Positions 19,717-64,000 of a stretch of DNA of 64,000 nt are shown here, one piece after another. A program made the translations under genes and the position numbers. This stretch comes from Candidatus Latescibacterota bacterium. GTDB taxonomy: Bacteria > Latescibacterota > UBA2968 > UBA8231. Below the pieces are notes generated by a model, which searched no databases, was not told where the DNA came from, and saw only the letters and a program-made list of their open reading frames with translations. Numbering within the stretch: the stretch's first letter is position 1; the number at the start of each line of letters is the position of its first letter. Location: contig OZ253462.1 in the NCBI GenBank assembly GCA_965261395.1, positions 5,088,001-5,152,000 on the forward strand, given 5' to 3'.

Positions 19717-19758
19717 TACCCTTATTACTACCCTTATTCAAGCATTACTACCCTTATT
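19717..19758 (-). repeat. Three copies of AATAAGGGTA(GT) across the Fic stop codon
   Basis: TACCCTTATT at 19717, 19729 and 19749 on the plus strand. Confidence 0.8.
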
Positions 19759-20799
19759 CCCGATAAAACGCCAGCGCGCACCCGGGCCTCGACCGCTGCA
19801 AGTTACATCGCCGGATTTCTTTAGCTCCGCCAAGAGGGTGCGAATCCATTCGCGGCCGACGCCGGGGCAATCGCGTTCTAGGTCGCTCAGGCGGAATTCG
19901 CCCGGTTGGGCGCGGATGGCGGCGAGCACCCGCTCAGACTTGGCACCCCGTGGGGCCTTGATCTGACCAGCGCGTTCCTCCAATTCGACGTAAGCACGGC
20001 GGATGATCGCGAAGAGGAAATTGAACCAAGGCGTCAGTTCGTGTTTGCCATCGTGCCAGCGCTGTGAACTGAGCCGGAGGCATTCGTAGTAGGACTCCCG
20101 GGATTCCTCAATGAGGCGTTCCAAGCTGATGTAGCGACCGACCTCATAGCCGTGCTGGTAGAGCGCCAACAGGGTGAGCAGCCGAGACACGCGGCCGTTG
20201 CCGTCCCGGAAAGGATGGATGCAAAGGAAATCCAAGACGAGGGCGGCGATGGCGATGAGCGGCGGGATATTCTCCTGGTCGAGGGCGTACTGGTAATGCT
20301 GGCAGAGTTCTTCTACAGCCGCCGGGGCCTCCGCGGCCTTCACGCAGCGGAACCGGACCACCGGGGCCTGTCCGGGCAGGAATTCCACGATGTCGTTATC
20401 AACTCGTTTTAATTGGCCCGCGTCGCCGCTGGCGGATTGGCAAAGGGCATGTAGGCGTTGCAAGGTATCTGGCGTGATAGAAAGCGCGGCGTAGTCGGAG
20501 TGAATCTCGTTCAAGGCGCGGCGATAGTCCTGAATCTCCTGCTCGGAGCGGTCACGGGGTTTCGCTTGGCCGAGCACCAGCGGGTAAAGGCGAGCCGGGG
20601 CGACCGTCACCCCCTCAATGCGGTTGGAGGACTCAGCGCTTTGAACGACAGCCGTGTCGCGGAGCGCTTTGAGGGCTTGCGGCGACTGGCGTGTGAATAG
20701 CTCCTGTTTGCCCCTCGACTCGGCGATATCGTTGAGCAGCCACACTGTGCTCAGAGGCGTTTCATGGTCGCGTAGGCGGTTGTTGCGGAAAGAATTCAT
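19738..20799 (-). CDS. Fic family protein with a C-terminal HTH-like segment
   Basis: HPFRDGNGRVSR Fic motif; SAESSNRIEG inhibitory-type motif. Confidence 0.92.
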   Translation of the reverse strand: MNSFRNNRLRDHETPLSTVWLLNDIAESRGKQELFTRQSPQALKALRDTAVVQSAESSNRIEGVTVAPARLYPLVLGQAKPRDRSEQEIQDYRRALNEIHSDYAALSITPDTLQRLHALCQSASGDAGQLKRVDNDIVEFLPGQAPVVRFRCVKAAEAPAAVEELCQHYQYALDQENIPPLIAIAALVLDFLCIHPFRDGNGRVSRLLTLLALYQHGYEVGRYISLERLIEESRESYYECLRLSSQRWHDGKHELTPWFNFLFAIIRRAYVELEERAGQIKAPRGAKSERVLAAIRAQPGEFRLSDLERDCPGVGREWIRTLLAELKKSGDVTCSGRGPGARWRFIGNKGSNA

Positions 20800-20869
20800 G
20801 GTTTGAGAAGATTTTAGTCTGGAGGGGATTCAGCAATCTGCACATAGCTATAAAAGAAGATGCAATACC

Positions 20870-22855
20870 TTACTGGCTCTCAGTATCAATGTCTTTGATG
20901 AGCTGATAAACGCGACCTGCTTCTTTATTCTTCTCCAGAAATGCCTGATAAGTCCGATAGGCGTCTTCAATAAGTTCACCATACAGAACAACCCGTACAT
21001 TTTTGGCTGCCAGCGATCTCTTGGATTCCTCCTCCTGCTCGGAAGTTTCCCACTGCTTGAGTCGCTCGCCTACGATGCAGATAACTTCAATCGGTTCGTT
21101 CTTTCCTGTTTCCTGAATCAGCTTTCTCAGTGCATTTCTGTATTTATCGACCTGTCCCTGCAGTTCAAAGTCCTCTAGTTTCCTCCTAGCGCGTTTGAGC
21201 TCGATTATAACGTGTTTCCCCGATGTCATTTTGTATTTGATGTCAAATCTCCCCCTCTGCTCTTCTTCGGTCAATTTTGCATCGAGTTTATTGAATTCGA
21301 TTTTGACATTTTGCTCCATCAACGGTGTTTCAGTCGCCCTATCCCATGAAGGGTCAAGCAACCAAAGGTGTTTGTAGAGATGTTCTTGAACTACCTTTTC
21401 AAGGACATTGTCCTTATTCTGCTCACGTAAGGCATCAATTACCTGTAGCCGCTCTCGAACAATCTGGTAATAGAGCGAAGCTTCAATATCATCCAGATCT
21501 GCGAAAACTTTAGCAAACTCTTGGATATTTTCGGGAGATACGTTATCAAGGGCAGAGAGATAATCCTTGTATCTAAGCTTTTCAAACGCTAACACGCTAT
21601 GCCGGTAGAGTTCTGTTCGCTCATTTTCTTCTAGAGTGAGTTGACCGATTTTCCCCAACATTGATTTCGCCTGTTTCTGCTTGTCTTTGCCCAATCCCTT
21701 CACCCATTCGTCAATCGCAGGAATCTGTCTAGCTTCTTTTTCTCCTTCCTGGGTACGCAGATCTGTCCACTGATTCTTGATATTTCTCAGTTCGTCTTTA
21801 ACCCAGTTCCTAAGTGCCTGGTATCTTGGATCGTCTTTGATGATTTCTTGTCGGTTGCTGGTCGCAATATCTTCTTGGCCATCAAGGTCCAAAAAATCAG
21901 CGTGGATTTCGCCGATAAGGTACTTTGTGTACAGTCCACCTTCGGGAAAGTCTTCAAGGATGTCTTCCTGAGCAAGTTTTCCGCGAACCATGATGACGAT
22001 CTTGTTGAGGTTGTCTTCACCGTCTTTGAGGTCGCCCGATCCAACGGCAGTGCCAATCCAACCTGTTACCTGATAGCCAACCGCTCCAATATCTCCTTCA
22101 CTTTCTACTTCAATTTTTCCCTCCCTTTCTTCTTCGTGTTCGAGCTTTTCCGAATTACAGAATGCAGTATACCTCTCACCTTCTCTGCCGTAATACCATA
22201 AATGCTGGAGCTTGTGGAAGTAATCACGGTCTGTGATTTCAACAGGGTTTTCATTGATGCGAACCGTGAAATTATATTCAGTTCCGATGATGCTGAATCT
22301 CCTTGCCAGTCGCTTCCTCAGGGCGGCGGGTGCTTGGGAAACCCGCTTTTTTAGTTCCGTGAGAACAATCCGCGTTCCATCTTTATCAAGGGTAAATTTG
22401 TCGTCTGGCAGAGGATCAGGGTAGTAGGTACTACCATCCTGCTTACTAATTTGGTCTTCAATCTCCTGCGCTGACATCACAAAACCGTTCTTTTTTCCGT
22501 CTTTGACCGTCTGAATCTCAGCAATGCCAGCAATCGAAAAGAGCGATAGCTTGCCGATGCCCTTGCGTCCCATGACAGGTCGCTCGTACCTAGGCGTTTG
22601 CTTGGCCTCTCTTTTTCTTCTCTCATAACCGACAGTGAGATACTTTTCGTTTATATCTGCCTCGGTCATACCGTGTCCATCGTCGGTAATTATGATTTGG
22701 TCGGATTTAATTTCTATGTCCACGTTTTCAGCATCAGCATCCCAAGAATTAGCGACCACTTCTGACAGAACGGCTGGGACATTACTGTAGAGCTTGAGAC
22801 CGAGATGATTGAGGACATTGAGGTCAATGCTCATCTGATATTTGGGATCAGGCAC
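20870..22855 (-). CDS. GHKL/MORC ATPase fused to a PD-(D/E)xK nuclease (HgiDII/BbrUII-like restriction enzyme)
   Basis: EVVANSWDADA, DDGHGM, GRKGIGKLS, GTRI; C-terminal RFDIKY...VIIELKR; overlaps the MTase stop. Confidence 0.8.
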   Translation of the reverse strand: MPDPKYQMSIDLNVLNHLGLKLYSNVPAVLSEVVANSWDADAENVDIEIKSDQIIITDDGHGMTEADINEKYLTVGYERRKREAKQTPRYERPVMGRKGIGKLSLFSIAGIAEIQTVKDGKKNGFVMSAQEIEDQISKQDGSTYYPDPLPDDKFTLDKDGTRIVLTELKKRVSQAPAALRKRLARRFSIIGTEYNFTVRINENPVEITDRDYFHKLQHLWYYGREGERYTAFCNSEKLEHEEEREGKIEVESEGDIGAVGYQVTGWIGTAVGSGDLKDGEDNLNKIVIMVRGKLAQEDILEDFPEGGLYTKYLIGEIHADFLDLDGQEDIATSNRQEIIKDDPRYQALRNWVKDELRNIKNQWTDLRTQEGEKEARQIPAIDEWVKGLGKDKQKQAKSMLGKIGQLTLEENERTELYRHSVLAFEKLRYKDYLSALDNVSPENIQEFAKVFADLDDIEASLYYQIVRERLQVIDALREQNKDNVLEKVVQEHLYKHLWLLDPSWDRATETPLMEQNVKIEFNKLDAKLTEEEQRGRFDIKYKMTSGKHVIIELKRARRKLEDFELQGQVDKYRNALRKLIQETGKNEPIEVICIVGERLKQWETSEQEEESKRSLAAKNVRVVLYGELIEDAYRTYQAFLEKNKEAGRVYQLIKDIDTESQ

Positions 22856-23951
22856 GGCAAATCTCCTCCAGATGCGTTTGAATGCTTTGGCCGATAACGG
22901 CTGCGAGTTGGACAGGTACGGCGTTTCCGACGTGAATTCCTAAGCGCACGAATGAGATCGGGAGATTCGGATCTACAAAGTCGTACTCTTTCGGAAATGT
23001 TTGTAGAAGTGCCCCCTCGCGGAGCGAAAGTGCCCGATCTTGTTCTGGGTGTCCGAAGCGTCCAGTGCCGAAGTTGTAAAATTGAGTCGTGATGGTCGGT
23101 GCGGGTTCATTCCACTCCATACGTGCATAAACCGACTTGTACGTCTGGCCTGACTTTTTTTTGTGGCATGGGGCACGTAGGGCAACATCCCAATCTAACC
23201 AAGTGCCGCCCGGAGTTGACTGTTTCATCCGTTCCTTATTAAGAGAAGAAAGTTTCCGCGACCTATGCAGCGGGTCTTCGTCAGATATTTGACCATCGGC
23301 GATTGCAGGAAGGTCTCCAATAGTAGCCTGTACTGTTGGGAGAGGATTCAACTCTGCCTGTGGGGAACATGCATGCGTTTGGGGTAGCAGAGAGACTTCC
23401 CCGAAGAGAGAGGCCATGAGAACGAGGCGGCGACGCTTTTGCGGAATGCCATAGTTGGGGCAGTATATCGACTTTTGATAGACGTAATATCCAAGAGAGT
23501 CGAGTTTCTCGACAAAGTCTGTAAAGACCTGCTGATTTCTGAGTGGCGTGACGTTCTCTATGGCGATCATTTCAGGCTTAACTCCCTCGGCTAGCCTCCC
23601 GAAGTGGGCGAGTAATCCCCACCGTTCGTCTTTGTCTCTATCTCTGTTTTTTCGCGTATGAGACGAAAACGGCTGACAGGGGGCGCACCCGACGAGCAGT
23701 CTGATAGCACCTTGTGGGTACAGGGCGGCAAGCTCGGCATTGGTGACAGAGCGAATATCTTTTTCAATAAATTGCGTCTGATTATTCTTCTCGTAGGTGT
23801 ACCTGCATGTCTTGTCAATATCAATCCCCGCGCTCACGTTTATATTGGCCTGCTGGAGACCGTGCGTCATGCCGCCAATGCCGCAGAACAGATCAACGGC
23901 GGATATAGGCACTTGGGTTATCTCTTTTGATAATATGTTCATGGCGATCAC
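22848..23951 (-). CDS. C5-cytosine DNA methyltransferase
   Basis: DLFCGIGG, GCAPCQPFS, ENV, QKRRR, REGALLQTFP, GNAVP. Confidence 0.95.
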   Translation of the reverse strand: MIAMNILSKEITQVPISAVDLFCGIGGMTHGLQQANINVSAGIDIDKTCRYTYEKNNQTQFIEKDIRSVTNAELAALYPQGAIRLLVGCAPCQPFSSHTRKNRDRDKDERWGLLAHFGRLAEGVKPEMIAIENVTPLRNQQVFTDFVEKLDSLGYYVYQKSIYCPNYGIPQKRRRLVLMASLFGEVSLLPQTHACSPQAELNPLPTVQATIGDLPAIADGQISDEDPLHRSRKLSSLNKERMKQSTPGGTWLDWDVALRAPCHKKKSGQTYKSVYARMEWNEPAPTITTQFYNFGTGRFGHPEQDRALSLREGALLQTFPKEYDFVDPNLPISFVRLGIHVGNAVPVQLAAVIGQSIQTHLEEICRA

Positions 23952-23962
23952 CGTTTGAACTG

Positions 23963-24358
23963 CTAGAGTTTGATATCCTCAAATCGGTCAAAGTCTTTAT
24001 CAAATGTTGCCACATGGTCGCCGGATGCCGCAGCTAGGGCAGCCAAGTAGCAATCCAGAAAATCGCATTTTGTCGTCGCAAAGCGATACAAAGCATCGAG
24101 CATTTCATCTTGCTTCATACAGCGCACACCGGCACTAATGATGACCTTACGCAGCCATTCTGCAATCTGTTCGCGCTCGGTCTGGTAGAAGGAATTGAGC
24201 ACCCACACCGCTTCGGCAACAGCCACTTCGGTTAATATCAGCACACATTTTCCATCGCAAGCGTCCGAAAATAGTGCCCGAGCAGCCGGGGAGTGCTGAG
24301 CATCGTCGCCGCGCAGAAAACGAAGGAGGACGTTGGCGTCTAAAAGATACTTGATCAT
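23963..24358 (-). CDS. vapC: PIN-domain toxin (VapC)
   Basis: LLDANVLLR, AEAVWVL, DFLDCYL, TFDKDF. Confidence 0.9.
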   Translation of the reverse strand: MIKYLLDANVLLRFLRGDDAQHSPAARALFSDACDGKCVLILTEVAVAEAVWVLNSFYQTEREQIAEWLRKVIISAGVRCMKQDEMLDALYRFATTKCDFLDCYLAALAAASGDHVATFDKDFDRFEDIKL

Positions 24359-24597
24359 TCGTATCTTGCCGCTCTTGCTTTGCGTGCTGCCTCTCGTTCC
24401 TCGGATTTGGACGCAGAGGGCTTGTCGTCTGCAAGACAGCCATATAGATCCTTGAGCGTTTCGGGCTGGGGCTTCACCAAAACGGCACCGTCAGTCAACT
24501 CATAGATGAGCTGCTGCCGAGGCTTGAGGTGGAGTGCCTTGCGGACTTCGGCCGGGATGGTGGTTTGCCATTTATCGGTTAGAGTTGACTTGATCAC
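24355..24597 (-). CDS. AbrB/MazE/SpoVT family antitoxin
   Basis: STLTDKWQTTIPAEVRKALHLKP; 4-nt overlap with vapC. Confidence 0.88.
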   Translation of the reverse strand: MIKSTLTDKWQTTIPAEVRKALHLKPRQQLIYELTDGAVLVKPQPETLKDLYGCLADDKPSASKSEEREAARKARAARYE

Positions 24598-57319: not shown

Positions 57320-60169
57320 ATGAGACGAGTTTTGATACTGTTCGTTGTGTTTCCACTGCTGCTGTGCGCCTGCGCCAGCACGTCGCCAACGCCCGTGCAA
57401 CAGGCCGCGATGGAAGAGACGACCGAGGAGAAGCTGCCCATTGATTCGCTGGTGACCGTCGGCCAGCTAGACAACGGCCTGCGCTATGTCATCCGCAAAA
57501 ACCAGAAACCCGAGAACCGAGTCGAGCTGCGGCTAGTGGTCGATGTAGGCTCAGTGCTGGAGGACGAAGAGCAGCAAGGGCTGGCGCACTTTGCCGAGCA
57601 CATGGCCTTCAACGGCACCAAAAACTTTGCCAAGCAGGAGTTGGTGGACTATCTGGAGCTAATCGGCATGCGCTTTGGGCCGGATCTCAATGCCTATACC
57701 AGCTTCGACGAAACCGTGTACATGCTGACGGTACCTACCGACAGCACCGAGGTGGTGCACACAGCCTTCCAAATCTTGGAGGACTGGGCGCACCAGATCA
57801 GCTTTGAGACCGAGGAGATCGACAAGGAACGGGGCGTAGTCGTCGAAGAGTGGCGGCTGGGGCGCGGCGCACAGCGGCGCATGTTCGACAAGCAATTGCC
57901 CATCCTCCTAAAAGATTCGCGCTACGCCGTGCGCCTGCCTATCGGCCAGAAGGCCGTGCTCGACACCTTTCAGCACGAGGCCCTGCGCCGCTTTTACCAA
58001 ACCTGGTACCGGCCCGATCTGATGGGTTTTGTGGCCGTCGGCGACATTGAGCCAGCGGCAATAGAGGCACTAGTGCAGGAGTATTTTGCGCGCATCCCCT
58101 CGGCAGAAGGCCCCAGCGAACGCACGGTGTTCCCCGTGCCCGACCACGAGGAGACGCTGTTCTCCATTGCCACCGACCCAGAAGCCACCTACAACAACGT
58201 CAGCATCTACTACAAAATGGACGTGCGGCCCCAGGGGACGGTGAGCACCTACCGCCGCTCGCTCATTGAGGCCCTATATCACCAGATGTTAAACCAGCGC
58301 CTGCACGAACTGACCAAGCTACCCGAGCCGCCTTTTTTAGGGGCCTATTCGGGCCAAGGGCGCTGGCTGCGCTCCAAGGAGTTTTTCATCCTCGGCGCTG
58401 CGGTGCAAAACAACGGTTTCGACGCGGGGCTTGAGGCTCTGTTGATTGAAGCGGCTAGAGTGCGGGAATTCGGCTTTACCGCCTCCGAGCTGGAGCGCGA
58501 GAAAAAGGAAATGCTGCGCGGCATGGAGCAGTCCTACCGCGAGCGCGATAAGCAGCAGTCGAGCGGTTTTGCCTCCGAATACGTGCGCCACCTGCTGACC
58601 GACGAGGCCATCCCCGGCATTGCCAAGGAGTACGAACTCTATCAGGAACTGGTACCCGGCATTGCGCTGGCAGAGGTCAATGCGCTGGCCAGCGAGTGGA
58701 CGAGCGGAAAAAACCGAGTGATCACCGTGGAGGCTCCCGAGCAAGAGGGTATTGCCGTGCCCAACGAGCAGGATCTGCTGGCGATCTTCGCCGAGGCGGC
58801 GCAGCAGGAGATCGAGCCGTACGCCGAAGAGGTGTCCGACGAGCCGCTGGTGGCCCAGGTGCCAGCTCCGGCTGAAATCGTCGAACGCAGCCAAATCCCC
58901 GAGATCGGCGTGACTTGGTGGACCCTCGCCAACGGCATCCGGGTCTGCCTGAAGCCGACGGACTTCAAAAACGATGAGATCCTCTTCCGGGCCTATAGCC
59001 CCGGCGGGCACTCGCTGGTCCCCGACGCCGACTACGTGGCGGCTTCGACGGCGACCTCGGTGGTAAGCGAAGGCGGCGTGGGGCCGTTTAACAAGATCTC
59101 ACTGGAGAAGAAACTGGCCGGCAAAGTGGTGCGGGTATCGCCGTGGATCAGCAGCTTGCGGGAGGGCATTTCTGGCTCGGCCTCGCCCGAAGATATTCAG
59201 ACCATGTTCGAGCTGATCTACGCCTTCTTCACCGCGCCACGCCAAGACAGCACAGCTTTCCAAGCCTACCAGACGCTCATGCGAGGCTCCATCCAAAACC
59301 GCAGTGCGCGCCCAGAGACAGCTTTCGGCGACACCATTGCGGTCACCATGGCGCAGTATCACCACCGGGCGCGCCCCTGGTCGCTGGAGTTGCTCGACGA
59401 GATGGACTTGGCCACGTCGATGGCCGTGTATCAAGATCGCTTTGCCGACGCCGGCGACTTCTCGTTTTTCTTTGTCGGCAACTTCACCCTCGAAGACATG
59501 GAGCCACTGGTGCGCACTTATTTGGGCGGCTTGCCGGCCACGGGACGGGAGGAGACTTGGCGCGATGTCGGCATTGAGGCCCCAGAGGGTGTGATCGACA
59601 AAGCGGTCTATCGCGGCATCGAACCCAAAAGCCAATCGCGGATGATTTTCACCGGCCCCTTTGAATACGACGGCTGGAAAAACAACCTCGAACTCAGGGC
59701 TATGACCTCCGCGCTGCAGATCAAGCTGCGCGAGGTGTTGCGCGAGGACTTGGGCGGCACCTATGGGGTATGGGTCAGCAGCAGCGGCTCGCAGTACCCG
59801 GACGAGAAGTACAGCATCTCCATCTCTTTCGGCAGCGACCCCGAGCGCGTCGAGGAGCTGACGCAGGTGATCTTCGAGCAGATCGACAGCCTAAAAACCG
59901 TCGGTACCACCGACCTCTACGTCGATAAGGTCAAGGAAATGCGCAAGCGCCAGCGCGAGACCGACCTTAAGGAAAACAGCTTCTGGGTCGGGTCTCTGGA
60001 GTCGCTCGACTTCAACGGGGTCGATCCACGGCTGCTGATTCAGTATCCAGCGTTGGTCGATTCGCTGACTGTGGAGGCGGTGCAGCAATCGGCGCAGAAG
60101 TATTTCAATATGGACCGCTATGTGCGGGTGGTGCTCTATCCAGAGGAGGGTGAGTCGGAGGAAGAGTAG
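57320..60169 (+). CDS. M16 (PqqL-like) zinc peptidase, lipoprotein
   Basis: LCAC lipobox, GLAHFAEHMAFNGT, NAYTSFDETVY, LREDLGGTY. Confidence 0.92.
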   Translation: MRRVLILFVVFPLLLCACASTSPTPVQQAAMEETTEEKLPIDSLVTVGQLDNGLRYVIRKNQKPENRVELRLVVDVGSVLEDEEQQGLAHFAEHMAFNGTKNFAKQELVDYLELIGMRFGPDLNAYTSFDETVYMLTVPTDSTEVVHTAFQILEDWAHQISFETEEIDKERGVVVEEWRLGRGAQRRMFDKQLPILLKDSRYAVRLPIGQKAVLDTFQHEALRRFYQTWYRPDLMGFVAVGDIEPAAIEALVQEYFARIPSAEGPSERTVFPVPDHEETLFSIATDPEATYNNVSIYYKMDVRPQGTVSTYRRSLIEALYHQMLNQRLHELTKLPEPPFLGAYSGQGRWLRSKEFFILGAAVQNNGFDAGLEALLIEAARVREFGFTASELEREKKEMLRGMEQSYRERDKQQSSGFASEYVRHLLTDEAIPGIAKEYELYQELVPGIALAEVNALASEWTSGKNRVITVEAPEQEGIAVPNEQDLLAIFAEAAQQEIEPYAEEVSDEPLVAQVPAPAEIVERSQIPEIGVTWWTLANGIRVCLKPTDFKNDEILFRAYSPGGHSLVPDADYVAASTATSVVSEGGVGPFNKISLEKKLAGKVVRVSPWISSLREGISGSASPEDIQTMFELIYAFFTAPRQDSTAFQAYQTLMRGSIQNRSARPETAFGDTIAVTMAQYHHRARPWSLELLDEMDLATSMAVYQDRFADAGDFSFFFVGNFTLEDMEPLVRTYLGGLPATGREETWRDVGIEAPEGVIDKAVYRGIEPKSQSRMIFTGPFEYDGWKNNLELRAMTSALQIKLREVLREDLGGTYGVWVSSSGSQYPDEKYSISISFGSDPERVEELTQVIFEQIDSLKTVGTTDLYVDKVKEMRKRQRETDLKENSFWVGSLESLDFNGVDPRLLIQYPALVDSLTVEAVQQSAQKYFNMDRYVRVVLYPEEGESEEE

Positions 60170-60295
60170 CGCTACGAGGAATCGTATATTTTTCTCGCCA
60201 CTACGTCGCCGTCGGCCCGAGCTGTTTTGGTTGGGTCGGCGGCGACTTTATCACCGTGGCCGAAGCAAGAGAATGCAGCAGACTCTCGCCCCCAA

Positions 60296-61075
60296 CTACA
60301 ACTGCCACATAATGCTACCATCGTTTCGCGTGGTGAGTACCTTTCGCCACTCCTGTCCGCGCGGACCATTGAACCATCCACCTGTGGCGTGTTGTCCGTA
60401 TATGCCAGCCATTTCCTGCGTGTCGTACTGAATTGGCCCATCGGACATGACCACCAGCGATGGACTACAGTAATCGAAAACCTCTCTACAATAGCCGCTC
60501 TCTCGACCGTGATGCGAAGCAACAAAAATGTTGACACGTCCAAGTAATGTACAGACATAAGGATTCTTGAGTAGTTCAATCCAGCCCGGCTGTTCAAGAT
60601 CACCTGGAAGAACAAAGGAAAGATTGCCAATATCCAAAAATATGAGCAGACTCAGATTGTTGGTATCTGTGAACGATGGATAATTGTTATGGAACGTCTG
60701 CACTCGGATCCCCGGCGGCTCAAGCTGATCGTTGGAGACTACTCCTGTATAATTGTCAATCATTTCGAGTAGTTTATCCATAGCAGGGCTGATAGGCGGT
60801 GTCTTCAGGTTACGCAGTTGAGTAGAATTAATACTGGAATTACGAGTTAGTATCTCGATCTTGAAATACTGCTGTAACATCGGCAAGTCTGCAATATGGT
60901 CTTCGTCGTAATTTGTCACAAATAGCCAACGTATAACTCTTATACCTTGTGTCCAAAGGTATTGAGAGGGCTGGCATGTCGATGAATAACCACAGTCAAA
61001 AAGAAAAACGCTACCGTCTTCCGCTATAGAGTAAGCGGCAAATCCATGTTCTACATTTAGAATCTCGAACTTCAT
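60296..61075 (-). CDS. ComEC/Rec2-like MBL-fold hydrolase 2
   Basis: FEILNVEHG, FDCG, TNYDEDH, LPGDLE, ASHHG; ATG overlaps the upstream TGA. Confidence 0.85.
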   Translation of the reverse strand: MKFEILNVEHGFAAYSIAEDGSVFLFDCGYSSTCQPSQYLWTQGIRVIRWLFVTNYDEDHIADLPMLQQYFKIEILTRNSSINSTQLRNLKTPPISPAMDKLLEMIDNYTGVVSNDQLEPPGIRVQTFHNNYPSFTDTNNLSLLIFLDIGNLSFVLPGDLEQPGWIELLKNPYVCTLLGRVNIFVASHHGRESGYCREVFDYCSPSLVVMSDGPIQYDTQEMAGIYGQHATGGWFNGPRGQEWRKVLTTRNDGSIMWQL

Positions 61076-62085
61076 CAGATCAAATTCTCTGTAATAGAGC
61101 CGACATACCAAGCCTTGAAGGTATTGCTGTAAAAGGTGTCCGAATTTACCCGCTTGGCGAAGTTCTTGTGCGTCACGTAGAGTACCATCGGTGTTGTGCT
61201 CGTATCAACAACCATACAATTCGCCTGGTTGTTGGTTATATAGGAGAGTTCTCGATGCCGCCATGCAGAGTAAGCTAGATGCTCAGAACGTGCATTCCCG
61301 AAGAATGTCAGGGTTGGATTGAGTGTATCAAGGAACTCATACGAACGTCCAGAATCACGGCCATGGTGAGGCGCAATTAGCAGATCGATATTATTCACGT
61401 AGTTCCGATAATTTTCAAGAATGTGTGCCCATGTGTCGTCGTGCGAGTCTCCACCGAAGACAATACGGTTATCTCCTATTCGATAAAGAAGCACGTAAGA
61501 GCAATCGTTGTAATCCTGGTCCGTCTTGTTCGCAGAATCTATAAGTTCCTCAGTTGGAGCAAGGATGTGAAGGCCATCGCCCCCAGAAGAGCCGTCGTCT
61601 CCAATGTTCCAATATTGTCCTTCTGCGCTAGCTAATAATGCTAGTCGCTTCGGGTCGTCGTCTGGTTTCGTATCCCGCAACTCCTTGTAGAACTTCCAGT
61701 CATCCTCGTTATATGGCGAGTTCTCCCATGACGACTTATCCATCTCTTTCTTGTTATCTGTATCCCAAAAATTGACAGGTCTAAACTCGTCAAATAAAGC
61801 CTTGATCCCATCCATGTGATCCATATCGGGGTGTGTCTGAATGTACCGGAAAATGCTGGTGATACTATGGTCCTGTAAGTAACTGATGGGATTAACCGGA
61901 TGTTTTTTCTGTTGAAAATTTCCACGGACACCCATCTCAAGCTGCGCCGTTTTGGCGGTCGATTCTTCAGTCAGTACGTCCGGTGGTTTTGCATTACAGA
62001 CATCGATCACCGTTATATGCCCAGAATTGTGGTTAATAACTGAACAGTCGCCTTGCTTAACGTTTAGGAAGTGAATTATCGCCAT
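61075..62085 (-). CDS. ComEC/Rec2-like MBL-fold hydrolase 1
   Basis: IHFLNVKQGDC, THPDMDHMDG, FGGDS, APHHG. Confidence 0.88.
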   Translation of the reverse strand: MAIIHFLNVKQGDCSVINHNSGHITVIDVCNAKPPDVLTEESTAKTAQLEMGVRGNFQQKKHPVNPISYLQDHSITSIFRYIQTHPDMDHMDGIKALFDEFRPVNFWDTDNKKEMDKSSWENSPYNEDDWKFYKELRDTKPDDDPKRLALLASAEGQYWNIGDDGSSGGDGLHILAPTEELIDSANKTDQDYNDCSYVLLYRIGDNRIVFGGDSHDDTWAHILENYRNYVNNIDLLIAPHHGRDSGRSYEFLDTLNPTLTFFGNARSEHLAYSAWRHRELSYITNNQANCMVVDTSTTPMVLYVTHKNFAKRVNSDTFYSNTFKAWYVGSITENLI

Positions 62086-62803
62086 CCTCTACCTCCAAAT
62101 CTAGAGAAGCTTCTAAGAGGAAGTGAGCATAACGATCAGCAGTTATCCTAACTGCTCCCTCTGTAAACCACCGAATCCAGACTAACGTTAATCCAAAATT
62201 AATAGATCCGGGGACGATAGTTAGACCCGATAGATTTTCTGTTTTCCAATCGTCAAAGCCCATTATTAGACAGACTGAGAAAGATAAAGCAGCAATCGTT
62301 AGACCGTAAGGTTTCAAGGCGAATATGTTGCGCCGGAACCCATAGTCCCTTAGTTCTTCAAAAATTCGTGGGAAACGTTCTCTATCGCGTGTTCGGCGGC
62401 GGAGTTCATAGACGCAAGATTCATAATAGTCGTCTGCCGCCTGCGGATTCTGTTCCTGTTCTTCCCGAGAAGGAATGTAAAATCCAAGACTACGAAGCTT
62501 GTCGTGGATGCGGTTACGGGTAATCTGGTTGAATTCTGTATTGCCATGCCTAAGGAGACGCGTTGTTGGTGGCCCATCCCATTTATCCCATAGAGCACTT
62601 TCGCGCTTTTTCCCTAAGTCTCCACCTATTTGCTTGCATAGATAGGAAAGAGGTAAAAGAACGAAGGAAGCTAATCCCCCAAGTTGCCAATCAATCCCTT
62701 CCGGTAGAATAGAAAACAGAACCAACGCAACCGGCACAATAGTTATGTAGACTGGAAAAGCCCGTGCGTAAGCGAAGTAAGGATTTAATCTAAGTCCTTT
62801 CAT
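62057..62803 (-). CDS. Uncharacterised 2+2 TM membrane protein
   Basis: RBS AGGAGG; two N-terminal and two C-terminal hydrophobic helices around a soluble domain (WDGPPTTRLLR, RTRD..F..YGFRRN). Confidence 0.8.
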   Translation of the reverse strand: MKGLRLNPYFAYARAFPVYITIVPVALVLFSILPEGIDWQLGGLASFVLLPLSYLCKQIGGDLGKKRESALWDKWDGPPTTRLLRHGNTEFNQITRNRIHDKLRSLGFYIPSREEQEQNPQAADDYYESCVYELRRRTRDRERFPRIFEELRDYGFRRNIFALKPYGLTIAALSFSVCLIMGFDDWKTENLSGLTIVPGSINFGLTLVWIRWFTEGAVRITADRYAHFLLEASLDLEVEDGDNSLPKR

Positions 62804-62849
62804 ACCATCCTCCTGATGGTTAGCGGATTTACTGTGCATAAGTGATTTT

Positions 62850-62945
62850 CATACCATCGGCATCTTCACTATCGACCAATCATTCCTCCCGATCCGTATC
62901 TTCAAACACGTCTCAGGTTTCCTCATTGAGCGGCTTCCACGGCAA
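62850..62945 (-). pseudogene. Degraded RelB/DinJ antitoxin fragment
   Basis: NEET*DVFEDTDREE*LVDSEDADGM, homologous to the antitoxin end at 63937-64000. Confidence 0.65.
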
Positions 62946-63187
62946 ACTTCTCCCACACCTCAACATCCAACCCAACCCGTTTGCGCCCGGTCGGCGGCGA
63001 CCCGCTGGCTTAAGGTGGTGCTGCAAAGAAAGCCCGCCGCAGTCAGGGCGGTGGCTTTGATTTCCGTAGCGCCACCTTTTCAGCCATCGTGCTCCCTTTA
63101 CGCGTCGAGATCGGTCATCGCTCCTAGGGTGCGTCTGGGAAATCCAATCTGGCGCGACCGCAAGCCGCGATCACCCCACGAGCCTAA

Positions 63188-63250
63188 ACCAGTGCGAACC
63201 AGATGCAATTCGGCTCCTTGGACGCGGTAAATCAAGAGCCAGTCCGGCTC
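63188..63250 (-). pseudogene. C-terminal fragment of a YafQ/RelE-family toxin
   Basis: EPDWLLIYRVQGAELHLVRTG; no N-terminal half and no following SHSDLF. Confidence 0.75.
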
Positions 63251-63292
63251 GGTCGCAGGCTCAACGTTCGGCTTGGACCAAACTTGCATCAT

Positions 63293-63321: not shown

Positions 63322-63576
63322 ATGCGAGCGAAGCATCAGCGCACGCTGGAGAGTGTGCTCAAGACGCCGACGCCAGCAGCCATCCGGTGGACTGACATCG
63401 TCGCCATGCTGAAGGCAGCAGGCGTGGAGGTGTCTCAGCGTTCGGGGTCGCGCATTCTGCTGAAGAAGGGAGCAGAACGGATGGTAGTTCACCGACCCCA
63501 TCCAGAGCCAGAGACTGGTAGAGCGACGGTGCGCGACATCGTCGTGTTCCTCAAAGCCGTAGGAGTCAAGCCATGA
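63322..63576 (+). CDS. hicA: HicA family toxin
   Basis: KHQRTLESV..IRWTDI..SGSRI..VHRPHP. Confidence 0.9.
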   Translation: MRAKHQRTLESVLKTPTPAAIRWTDIVAMLKAAGVEVSQRSGSRILLKKGAERMVVHRPHPEPETGRATVRDIVVFLKAVGVKP

Positions 63577-63905
63577 TTCAGTACAAAGGATACGCTGCCG
63601 AGGTCGAATTCGACGATTCCGTGGGATGTCTTCACGGACGGGTCGTCAACAGCGGTGCTTATTCGATTGCCACCTTTGAGGCAACTGACGTCGAGGGGAT
63701 TCGGCGCGAGTTCCATCGCTCCATCGACGAGTATCTCAAGTCCTGTGAGGAAGACGGCATTGAGCCGCGAAGGCCTTTCTCAGGCAAGCTCAACGTTCGG
63801 CTCGGGACAAACTTGCATCAGCGCGTTGCGCGCTCGGCGGCAGAGAGCGGTCTGAGCTTGAATAGCTGGATCACGCAAGCACTGGAGAAGAGCGTGTCCG
63901 AGTAA
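63573..63905 (+). CDS. hicB: HicB family antitoxin
   Basis: YKGYAAEVEFD, SIDEYL, RPFSGKLNVR, SLNSWI RHH; ATGA overlap with hicA. Confidence 0.92.
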   Translation: MIQYKGYAAEVEFDDSVGCLHGRVVNSGAYSIATFEATDVEGIRREFHRSIDEYLKSCEEDGIEPRRPFSGKLNVRLGTNLHQRVARSAAESGLSLNSWITQALEKSVSE

Positions 63906-63936: not shown

Positions 63937-64000
63937 TCAAATATTGAGCTTCTGAAACATGTCATCGGCGTCTTCACATTCGACCAATTCTTCCCCTCGA
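63937..64000 (-). CDS. 3' end of a RelB/DinJ family antitoxin (runs off the window)
   Basis: RGEELVECEDADDMFQKLNI*; stop overlaps an ATG (TGATG). Confidence 0.6.
   Translation of the reverse strand, partial: RGEELVECEDADDMFQKLNI

Follow-up and report, generated by a model that had tools for sequence, protein, structure and literature searches.

What do a small membrane protein and two hydrolases of the ComEC type do together when they are encoded side by side, between a peptidase gene and toxin–antitoxin (TA) genes? The three genes in question lie on the minus strand of a 64,000-nucleotide stretch from a Candidatus Latescibacterota bacterium (contig OZ253462.1, positions 5,088,001 to 5,152,000; hereafter the window, whose own numbering we use throughout). 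They encode a predicted transmembrane (TM) protein of 248 residues (gene 1, 62057–62803) and two predicted proteins of the metallo-beta-lactamase (MBL) fold, MBL2 of 336 residues (gene 2, 61075–62085) and MBL3 of 259 residues (gene 3, 60296–61075). An initial annotation, made from the sequence alone, had raised the possibility of a cyclase-less defence or nucleotide-signalling module. Our analysis identifies these genes as a conserved, widely transferred three-gene defence candidate that is not represented as a system in the libraries we compared it with (PADLOC-DB 2.0.0, NCBIfam 20 and Pfam), and we consider a role in defence probable.

Two ComEC-type hydrolases and a membrane protein

As the initial annotation had reported, the three genes are AT-richer than their surroundings and coupled. 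The cassette has a GC content of 0.454, compared to 0.597 for the remaining window, and is the lowest 2.5-kb stretch within it, consistent with horizontal acquisition. Gene 1 starts with an ATG behind GGAGGA, MBL2 starts with an ATG behind GGAGG that lies 29 nt inside the 3' end of gene 1, and the start codon of MBL3 shares the sequence TGATG with the stop codon of MBL2. An upstream ATG at 62839 is an unlikely start for gene 1 because, in an alignment of homologs, the TM proteins begin at the Met of the 62803 start. A protein homology search returned matches with expectation values (E) down to 5e-161, indicating that the open reading frames (ORFs) of the cassette are real genes rather than chance ones.

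Judged by their sequences, MBL2 and MBL3 are both soluble MBL-fold proteins of the ComEC type. MBL2 has a complete ComEC-like metal site, consisting of D28, the motif HPDMDH at residues 85–90 (H85-x-D87-x-D89-H90), GD213 and the histidines H240-H241 of an HHG motif. The site of MBL3 comprises D27, GD159, H188-H189 (HHG) and a variant motif II, NYDEDH at residues 55–60 (N55-x-D57-x-D59-H60). Across 21 MBL3 orthologs, D57, D59 and H60 do not vary and at least 90% retain N55, indicating that the variant site has been selected and is not decaying. The C-terminal domain of ComEC is described as a Mn2+-dependent phosphodiesterase/nuclease that needs the two aspartates of motif II, and a variant of the motif with Asn in place of His is noted for the ComEC of S. 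pneumoniae (PMC8579336).

Profile and structure comparisons placed the two proteins in the same neighbourhood. In PADLOC, both matched the family PDC-M48B, MBL2 through model PDLC04673 (E 1.1e-36) and MBL3 through PDLC04674 (E 2.9e-48), and the same MBL clade matches the PADLOC models LmuA, Avs1a and RTasMBL. MBL3 also matched Lactamase_B in Pfam (E 5.8e-5). For both proteins the first profile match in the PDB was ComEC (E 2.9e-5 for MBL2 and 2.7e-8 for MBL3). An AlphaFold2 model of MBL2, with a predicted local distance difference test (pLDDT) score of 86.6, had as its best Foldseek match the crystal structure of the ComEC beta-lactamase-like domain (9ic4; E 2.9e-13, TMt 0.74). Neither MBL showed a signal peptide, a TM segment or a hydrophobic N-terminus by hydropathy and sequence, which argues that both are cytoplasmic, and neither carried a ComEC channel or OB domain or matched the Competence domain of Pfam. 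The pair of soluble, channel-less hydrolases with one canonical and one variant site that had been described at this locus is thus present.

The TM protein contains two strong hydrophobic segments (residues 10–39 and 160–186) and two weaker ones by hydropathy. An AlphaFold2 model built from 88 family members (pLDDT 89.5; predicted template-modelling score, pTM, 0.84) was all-helical, with TM helices at 8–32, 41–74, 164–187 and 193–212 on either side of a helical domain some 100 residues long, in agreement with the 2+2 arrangement around a soluble domain proposed at the outset. This domain is rich in Lys and Arg (22 residues) and so is presumably cytoplasmic. Residues Y9, A13, P24, G64, W75, G77, P79, G155, R158 and N159 are invariant across the family, and nearly invariant positions include R85, T138, R139, Y154 and F156. 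The family is large: when its profile was run against 1.84 billion representatives, 3,360 clusters (50% identity) matched at E≤0.001, 1,575 of them at E≤1e-30, and the 150 best clusters consist almost entirely of proteins of 228–275 residues. The protein from the window has 74 close homolog clusters.

No family model covered this protein. It had no match in Pfam, NCBIfam or PADLOC, and a Pfam search with the 88 family members returned nothing consistent, only scattered, weak matches to hydrophobic domains of unknown function in at most 10 of the 88. Foldseek comparison of the model to PDB folds gave no match at E≤0.001; the top match was the TM domain of an ABC transporter (E 0.09), and the best TM-score was 0.28. 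The family profile matched only designed helical proteins among PDB sequences, without a significant stretch, and the ESM Atlas returned only unnamed 'hypothetical protein' clusters. On the strength of the model, the TM protein is best described as an unannotated membrane partner with a predicted new fold. We considered and rejected a relationship to stators of the MotA/ExbB/ZorA type, which share the 2+2 topology only: Foldseek matched ExbB and MotA at E 0.3–1.2 with TM-scores of at most 0.28, and no MotB- or ExbD-like partner gene is present. Predicting a complex of MBL2 and MBL3 with the TM protein as partner gave a score of 0.00 and a mark of 0.32, which is evidence neither way, and a search for longer homologs found no fused TM-MBL forms at E≤0.001, itself weak evidence.

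A recurrent partnership and its relation to named systems

To characterize the distribution of the cassette, we scanned one genome per species, confirmed 221 loci with TM-family genes, and analysed the best 80 by calling ORFs and classing the neighbours with phmmer against verified representatives. The order TM, MBL2, MBL3, arranged and oriented as in the window, occurred in 21 of these 80 loci, bearing out the stand-alone three-gene unit that the initial annotation had envisaged. All three ORFs were unbroken in 15 of the 21, and six carried split or shortened cassette genes (L002, L010, L012, L015, L020 and L022). At two further loci (L003 and L004), the cassette ran off the edge of the contig. 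Five loci had TM and MBL2 only (L009, L018, L026, L030 and L035), one had TM and MBL3 only (L036), and at another (L024) a type II restriction-modification (RM) system was inserted between MBL2 and an MBL3-like gene. One of the loci with broken genes carried two tandem cassettes (L002, 7315–12479), the first with a truncated TM gene and the second with MBL2 in three ORFs. By record titles, the cassette is found in Latescibacteria, Poribacteria, Gemmatimonadota, Acidobacteriota, Nitrospirales, Binatia, Sumerlaeota, Rhodothermales, Chloroflexota, Cyanobacteria, and Alpha- and Gammaproteobacteria, more than ten phyla overall.

Three other arrangements involved the same membrane-protein family. 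In one, the TM gene is followed by a single MBL of the PDLC04673 type, to which MBL2 is most closely related (26% identity across 341 residues). In another, a single MBL, of the PDLC04676 or L045 type, precedes the TM gene. In the last, an MBL gene is followed by a gene of about 760 codons with Prok-E2_A, ThiF and Prok-JAB domains (hereafter E2-E1-JAB) and then by the TM gene. We assessed this association at the 65 loci with TM genes of at least 225 codons and at least 1.5 kb of sequence on both sides. An MBL lay within 1.5 kb of the TM gene at 54 of them, and at ten more it lay in the same cluster (eight behind an E2-E1-JAB gene, plus L032 and L041), for a total of 64 of 65. The sole exception (L039) matched the first 144 residues only. 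An MBL is thus a near-obligate partner of the TM family.

A quick maximum-likelihood tree of 70 TM proteins, from which ten of the 80 loci were omitted for short or overlong TM ORFs, split into TM-first and MBL-first halves with a Shimodaira–Hasegawa-like approximate likelihood ratio (SH-aLRT) support of 100. All loci with TM followed by MBL2, with or without MBL3, fell in one clade of 29 rows (support 90), adjoining a clade of seven rows made up of pairs of TM and a PDLC04673-type MBL. Because the tree splits by gene order and by partner, the TM protein appears to have diversified together with its MBL partner.

The closest named relative is 6A-MBL, which in Iyer, Burroughs and Aravind (2006, PMC1779556) is operon type 6a, a two-gene operon of E2-E1-JAB and a specialised MBL, and which is called an anti-phage and anti-jumbo-phage system in two later papers that cite it. 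NCBIfam lists both components (NF058524 for the MBL and NF058523, a cap2_3 protein) under the name 'anti-phage 6A-MBL system'. True 6A-MBL MBLs among the tested loci reach NF058524 at 354–454 bits (cut-off 220); at L055, for example, the MBL scores 453.8 bits and the E2-E1-JAB protein reaches NF058523 at 574 bits (cut-off 320). An E2-E1-JAB gene lies near the TM gene at 18 of the 80 loci, and at eight the TM gene directly follows it. The initial annotation had linked TM proteins and ComEC-like MBLs of this kind to CD-NTase/E1-E2 genes; the E1-E2 half of that link was borne out, and no CD-NTase appeared in anything we scanned, the companion of the E2-E1-JAB gene being an MBL instead of a cyclase.

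The cassette resembles 6A-MBL in its ComEC-like MBL-fold enzyme and its patchy, mobile distribution, and the TM protein from the window is homologous to the proteins encoded after cap2_3 at eight loci (L049, L055–L057, L059, L062, L077 and L080; phmmer E 1e-26 to 1e-39). The definition of 6A-MBL, both published and in NCBIfam, does not include a TM protein, which is accessory in a subset of loci. Unlike 6A-MBL, the window has no E2-E1-JAB gene, and none of its 57 ORFs gave a Prok-E2, ThiF or JAB match. MBL2 reached the 6A-MBL_enzyme model of NCBIfam at only 40.2 bits against the cut-off of 220, and MBL3 did not match it at all. In addition, the cassette is TM-first and carries a second MBL in place of E2-E1-JAB.

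The second named relative, the PADLOC candidate system PDC-M48, shares its MBL family with the cassette, and its other component, PDC-M48A, is also a small membrane protein. The matches of the window MBLs to PDC-M48B are weaker than those of the single MBLs paired with TM homologs, which score E 1e-136 to 1e-160. PDC-M48A (about 165–170 residues) and the TM family show no detectable homology (hhalign probability 0.1). PADLOC found no PDC-M48A among the three cassette proteins; in the upstream stretch, where it was run on a YafQ-like fragment only, it gave no matches. PDC-M48 also occurs as a separate unit just upstream of the TM cassette at three Poribacteria loci (L002, L003 and L005), where the A and B components are a 171-residue membrane protein and a 353-residue MBL (L005, 8133–9713). 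At L003, a 6A-MBL pair lies upstream of the PDC-M48 pair in turn. The PDC-M48 and 6A-MBL pairs upstream of the cassette suggest that MBL-based modules stack.

Other relatives differ in their partners. The C-terminal beta-lactamase-like nuclease domain of ComEC/Rec2 is the best PDB relative by sequence and by fold and likewise has Asp in place of the second His of motif II. In ComEC itself, this domain forms one polypeptide with a channel and is located on the outer side of the cytoplasmic membrane, whereas the window MBLs are free-standing, without an export signal, and paired with an unrelated four-TM protein. The full-length model for this family in NCBIfam (ComEC_Rec2, TIGR00361) was reached by MBL2 and MBL3 at 28.5 and 30.8 bits, against a cut-off of 190 and over the MBL part only. 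Homologous MBLs also occur in Lamassu (LmuA), AVAST type 1 (Avs1a), DRT (RTasMBL) and HamMAB, but their partners there are SMC-like, STAND, reverse-transcriptase or helicase proteins, rather than a membrane protein or a second MBL. Immunity by HamMAB is reported to need an active MBL (PMC13069673).

A type II cyclic-oligonucleotide-based anti-phage signalling system (CBASS) or a Pycsar system would include a nucleotide cyclase. The annotated absence of a cyclase is supported by our searches: PADLOC, Pfam and NCBIfam gave no CD-NTase or pyrimidine cyclase in the cassette, and none was found among the window ORFs or the 127 neighbouring ORFs of the 21 cassette loci. Our literature search found no description of a cassette with TM, MBL and MBL, the name PDC-M48 returned no matches, and the accessible part of the DefensePredictor paper (PMC13092281) does not mention MBL, lactamase or ComEC.

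By sequence comparison, then, the cassette does not appear to be a member of either named system; for 6A-MBL this follows from the missing E2-E1-JAB gene and from MBL scores far below the NCBIfam cut-off. It shares its MBL clade with both systems and its TM family with a subset of 6A-MBL loci. The module is not wholly without a name: both MBLs fall in a PADLOC candidate family, and it is the TM family that lacks a PADLOC model. The cassette would be a new form of MBL-based defence, a kind to which 6A-MBL and the candidate PDC-M48 belong, and would add an unannotated membrane partner to it. This partner represents a large membrane-protein family with no family model of its own and with a near-obligate MBL partner, including inside the validated 6A-MBL system.

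Defence context, mobility and possible function

The contexts of the cassette pointed to defence, as had been anticipated. At six of the 21 cassette loci (L007, L008, L012, L015, L016 and L021), the hsdS and hsdR genes of a type I RM operon flank the cassette in the same orientation; this embedding was established by locus classification for all loci and by a Pfam check on L016. At three (L005, L022 and L023), it directly abuts type I RM genes, and at 16 of the 80 loci such genes were present in the flanking sequence that had been fetched. We then ran PADLOC (E≤1e-10) on 127 other ORFs of at least 110 codons within about 5–6 kb of the 21 cassettes, of which 22 had matches. The specific ones were a type II methyltransferase and restriction endonuclease, MzaA, HEC-09, PDC-S03, PDC-S11, PDC-S65, PDC-M14A, PDC-M26A, WYL regulators and a capP/RmrA-like protein, and the generic ones were a sigma-54 activator, a radical SAM protein, an IscS-like protein and ThiF. 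Overall, 13 of the 21 cassette loci have an RM or specific defence neighbour, a fraction judged against general expectation rather than a random background. The PADLOC preprint states that its 145 PDC candidates were chosen for embedding in type I RM, BREX or DISARM (bioRxiv 10.1101/2024.01.29.577857). The embedding of the cassette in RM operons supports a defence role on the same basis.

The cassette is horizontally transferred. Branches between phyla in the TM tree are short, with near-identical TM proteins in different phyla by record titles, and TM homologs occur on 80 plasmid records. A Rhodococcus plasmid carries one beside an Abi gene and a RelE-HTH-SecB module, and Nostoc and Acinetobacter plasmids carry them in 6A-MBL layouts. 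A record of the P2-like Ralstonia phage YO009_3 (ON170032.1, flagged UNVERIFIED_ORG; locus L086, 3245–5139) contains an MBL gene of the PDLC04676 type (E 2.4e-85) with a TM-family gene behind it (E 6.9e-31). Two plasmids carried MBL2-like genes but no member of the TM family. A Runella plasmid (NC_015694.1; L084, 3537–12899) carries three MBL genes in a row, one of them MBL2-like at 43.5% identity, together with a SEC-C domain gene, two small hypothetical genes, a serine protease of 1,363 residues and no TM-family member; this row looks like another MBL-based module. On an A. baumannii plasmid (NZ_CP027245.2; L083, 425–5657), the TM homolog is divergent from a 6A-MBL pair of MBL and E2-E1-JAB and is preceded by a WYL-domain gene, which suggests WYL-type transcriptional control in some variants.

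We propose that the three genes form one mobile anti-phage or anti-plasmid cassette, which would belong to a wider, unmodelled partnership between a four-TM family and ComEC-like MBL hydrolases. As to the division of labour, we tentatively lean towards a reading in which the MBLs are the effectors and the TM protein acts for them as a partner or sensor in the membrane. MBL2 would be the core enzyme, a cytoplasmic effector with phosphodiesterase/nuclease activity of the Mn2+ type, an activity proposed because the ComEC domain is its best match by sequence and fold. MBL3, with its motif-II aspartates kept and a conserved Asn replacing the first His, may be a second specialised or regulatory subunit. 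Pairs of inactive and active MBLs occur in CPSF73/100, a possible parallel for MBL3 and MBL2. The TM protein would use its conserved cytoplasmic domain to hold, localise or switch both MBLs at the inner membrane, and invading nucleic acid would be attacked at entry or upon a membrane perturbation caused by infection. We favour the MBLs as effectors because their clade behaves as an exchangeable module, found in LmuA, Avs1a, RTasMBL and HamMAB and, unaccompanied by the TM family, in MBL2-like form on two plasmids; we favour the TM protein as a partner because its family occurs with MBLs only and co-diversifies with them. If this reading is correct, it would show how immunity came to employ a nuclease fold of the competence type on the cytoplasmic side of the membrane.

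Several observations weigh against this proposal, and most of them bear on a signalling or abortive-infection mechanism. In such a mechanism, one or both MBLs would detect infection and then produce or break down a small phosphodiester ligand; binding of the ligand to the cytoplasmic domain would cause the TM protein to oligomerise and depolarise or permeabilise the membrane, with the MBL in the place of the cyclase of CBASS or Pycsar. The order MBL, E2-E1-JAB, TM, found at eight loci and on one Nostoc plasmid, mirrors the enzyme, Cap2/3, effector layout of type II CBASS, and by that analogy would favour signalling. A preprint from the Corbett lab (10.1101/2024.11.21.623953) describes an MBL pathway alongside CBASS and Pycsar as conjugating 'their respective signaling enzymes', and so groups MBL with signalling enzymes. 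The conserved polar, basic and other residues placed in the cytoplasmic domain (W75, G77, P79, R85, T138, R139, Y154, R158 and N159), among them the invariant Arg, Asn, Thr and Tyr, might line a pocket for a ligand instead of serving for docking. The fold of MBL2 also resembles small-molecule phosphodiesterases (2bib and 7dck): its second-best match, the pneumococcal teichoic-acid phosphorylcholine esterase 2bib (E 6.8e-13), nearly equals ComEC, making a non-nucleic phosphodiester substrate possible. Three further points concern the defence role itself. Eight of the 21 cassette loci have no specific defence neighbour within about 5–6 kb, the 13 that do are set against no background set and thus amount to no formal test of enrichment, and in the window the immediate defence-type neighbours are only the HicAB pair and a toxin fragment.

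A signalling mechanism has, in our estimate, a limited but real chance of being correct. The TM protein shows no known ligand-binding fold, as judged by its lack of PDB fold matches at E≤0.001 and of Pfam matches. MBLs are the only partners of its family, while the signalling effectors known so far are common to several enzyme types, and we know of no hydrolase of this MBL clade that makes a second messenger. In addition, homologous MBLs occupy the effector position in the Lamassu, AVAST and DRT models. The same comparison bears on the idea that the TM protein is the effector, put forward in the initial annotation: the CBASS-like gene order speaks for it, but the use of this MBL clade as an effector module elsewhere favours an MBL effector at least as much. 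A more specific version, in which immunity is cyclase-less and hydrolase-driven and the two MBLs generate or clear a phosphodiester messenger or nucleic-acid fragment as the signal that opens a four-TM, membrane-disrupting effector, seems to us unlikely. If signalling did prove correct, it would assign a function to the unannotated TM gene beside some 6A-MBL systems. If the cassette is confirmed, its make-up of a TM gene and one or two MBLs, free of E1 and E2, would offer a simple handle on the role of the MBL in 6A-MBL.

Quite improbable, in our view, is a role outside defence, such as a membrane-associated phosphodiesterase that serves the turnover of envelope or lipid head groups, or the processing of taken-up DNA, as an accessory metabolic trait. 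The near-equal match of MBL2 to the phosphorylcholine esterase and the eight loci without recognisable defence neighbours would fit such a role, as would the reported action of ComEC relatives in DNA uptake. Against it, the MBLs are apparently cytoplasmic, lacking a signal peptide, TM segment, ComEC channel or OB domain, and the cassette sits inside type I RM operons. The cassette is also patchy across phyla, has broken genes at six of 21 loci, is present on plasmids and in the P2-like phage record, and is linked to the 6A-MBL system.

A selfish addiction module, in which an MBL nuclease toxin is restrained by its partners with no net anti-phage role, is the most improbable reading, as three genes of 248–336 codons that include a membrane protein and are translationally coupled in a TM-first order are unlike known type II TA pairs, and the broken copies tolerated at six of 21 loci argue against strong addiction, even though the cassette is mobile, low in GC and adjoins TA genes both in the window and on the Rhodococcus plasmid.

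The locus and its neighbours

Within the window, the cassette lies in a low-GC island (60296–62900; GC about 0.45 against a background of 0.60). On the gene 3 side, it is convergent with an M16 peptidase gene identified by Pfam (57320–60169), the tail-to-tail arrangement that had been noted. On the other side lies an intact HicA/HicB pair (63322–63905, Pfam). Between this pair and the cassette is the C-terminal fragment of a YafQ-like toxin (64 residues; 63098–63292, minus strand; Pfam E 2.8e-4), and degenerate direct repeats of the HicB region occur at 62850–62892 and 63958–64000 (79%) and at 63255–63291 and 63784–63820 (89%). The fragment and the repeats are remnants of rearranged TA modules, so the TA debris described in the initial annotation is real as far as they are concerned and does not extend to the HicA/HicB pair.

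Upstream of gene 1, at 63034–63054, is a GC-rich, terminator-like hairpin with T-runs on both strands, identified by consensus match only, which might insulate the cassette from the TA remnants. A promoter scan returned two sites, compared to 4.0 expected, and none upstream of gene 1. A scan for insertion scars found no tRNA genes in the 64-kb window. A 31-nt imperfect direct repeat flanks the low-GC island (60216–60246 and 62971–63001; 74%, with a 13-nt exact core), which by a rough estimate, not computed, is compatible with chance in GC-rich DNA.

The rest of the window is ordinary chromosome by Pfam, including genes for glutamine synthetase, an ammonium transporter, ubiE and radical-SAM menaquinone enzymes. 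A second low-GC island lies 36 kb from the cassette, at 19738–24597. It contains a SoFic-like Fic gene (PADLOC SoFic, E 1.4e-36), a type II RM pair made up of a C5 cytosine methylase and a restriction enzyme that carries a HATPase_c_3 domain (REase_II, E 7.5e-104), and a PIN / PrlF-MazE TA pair.

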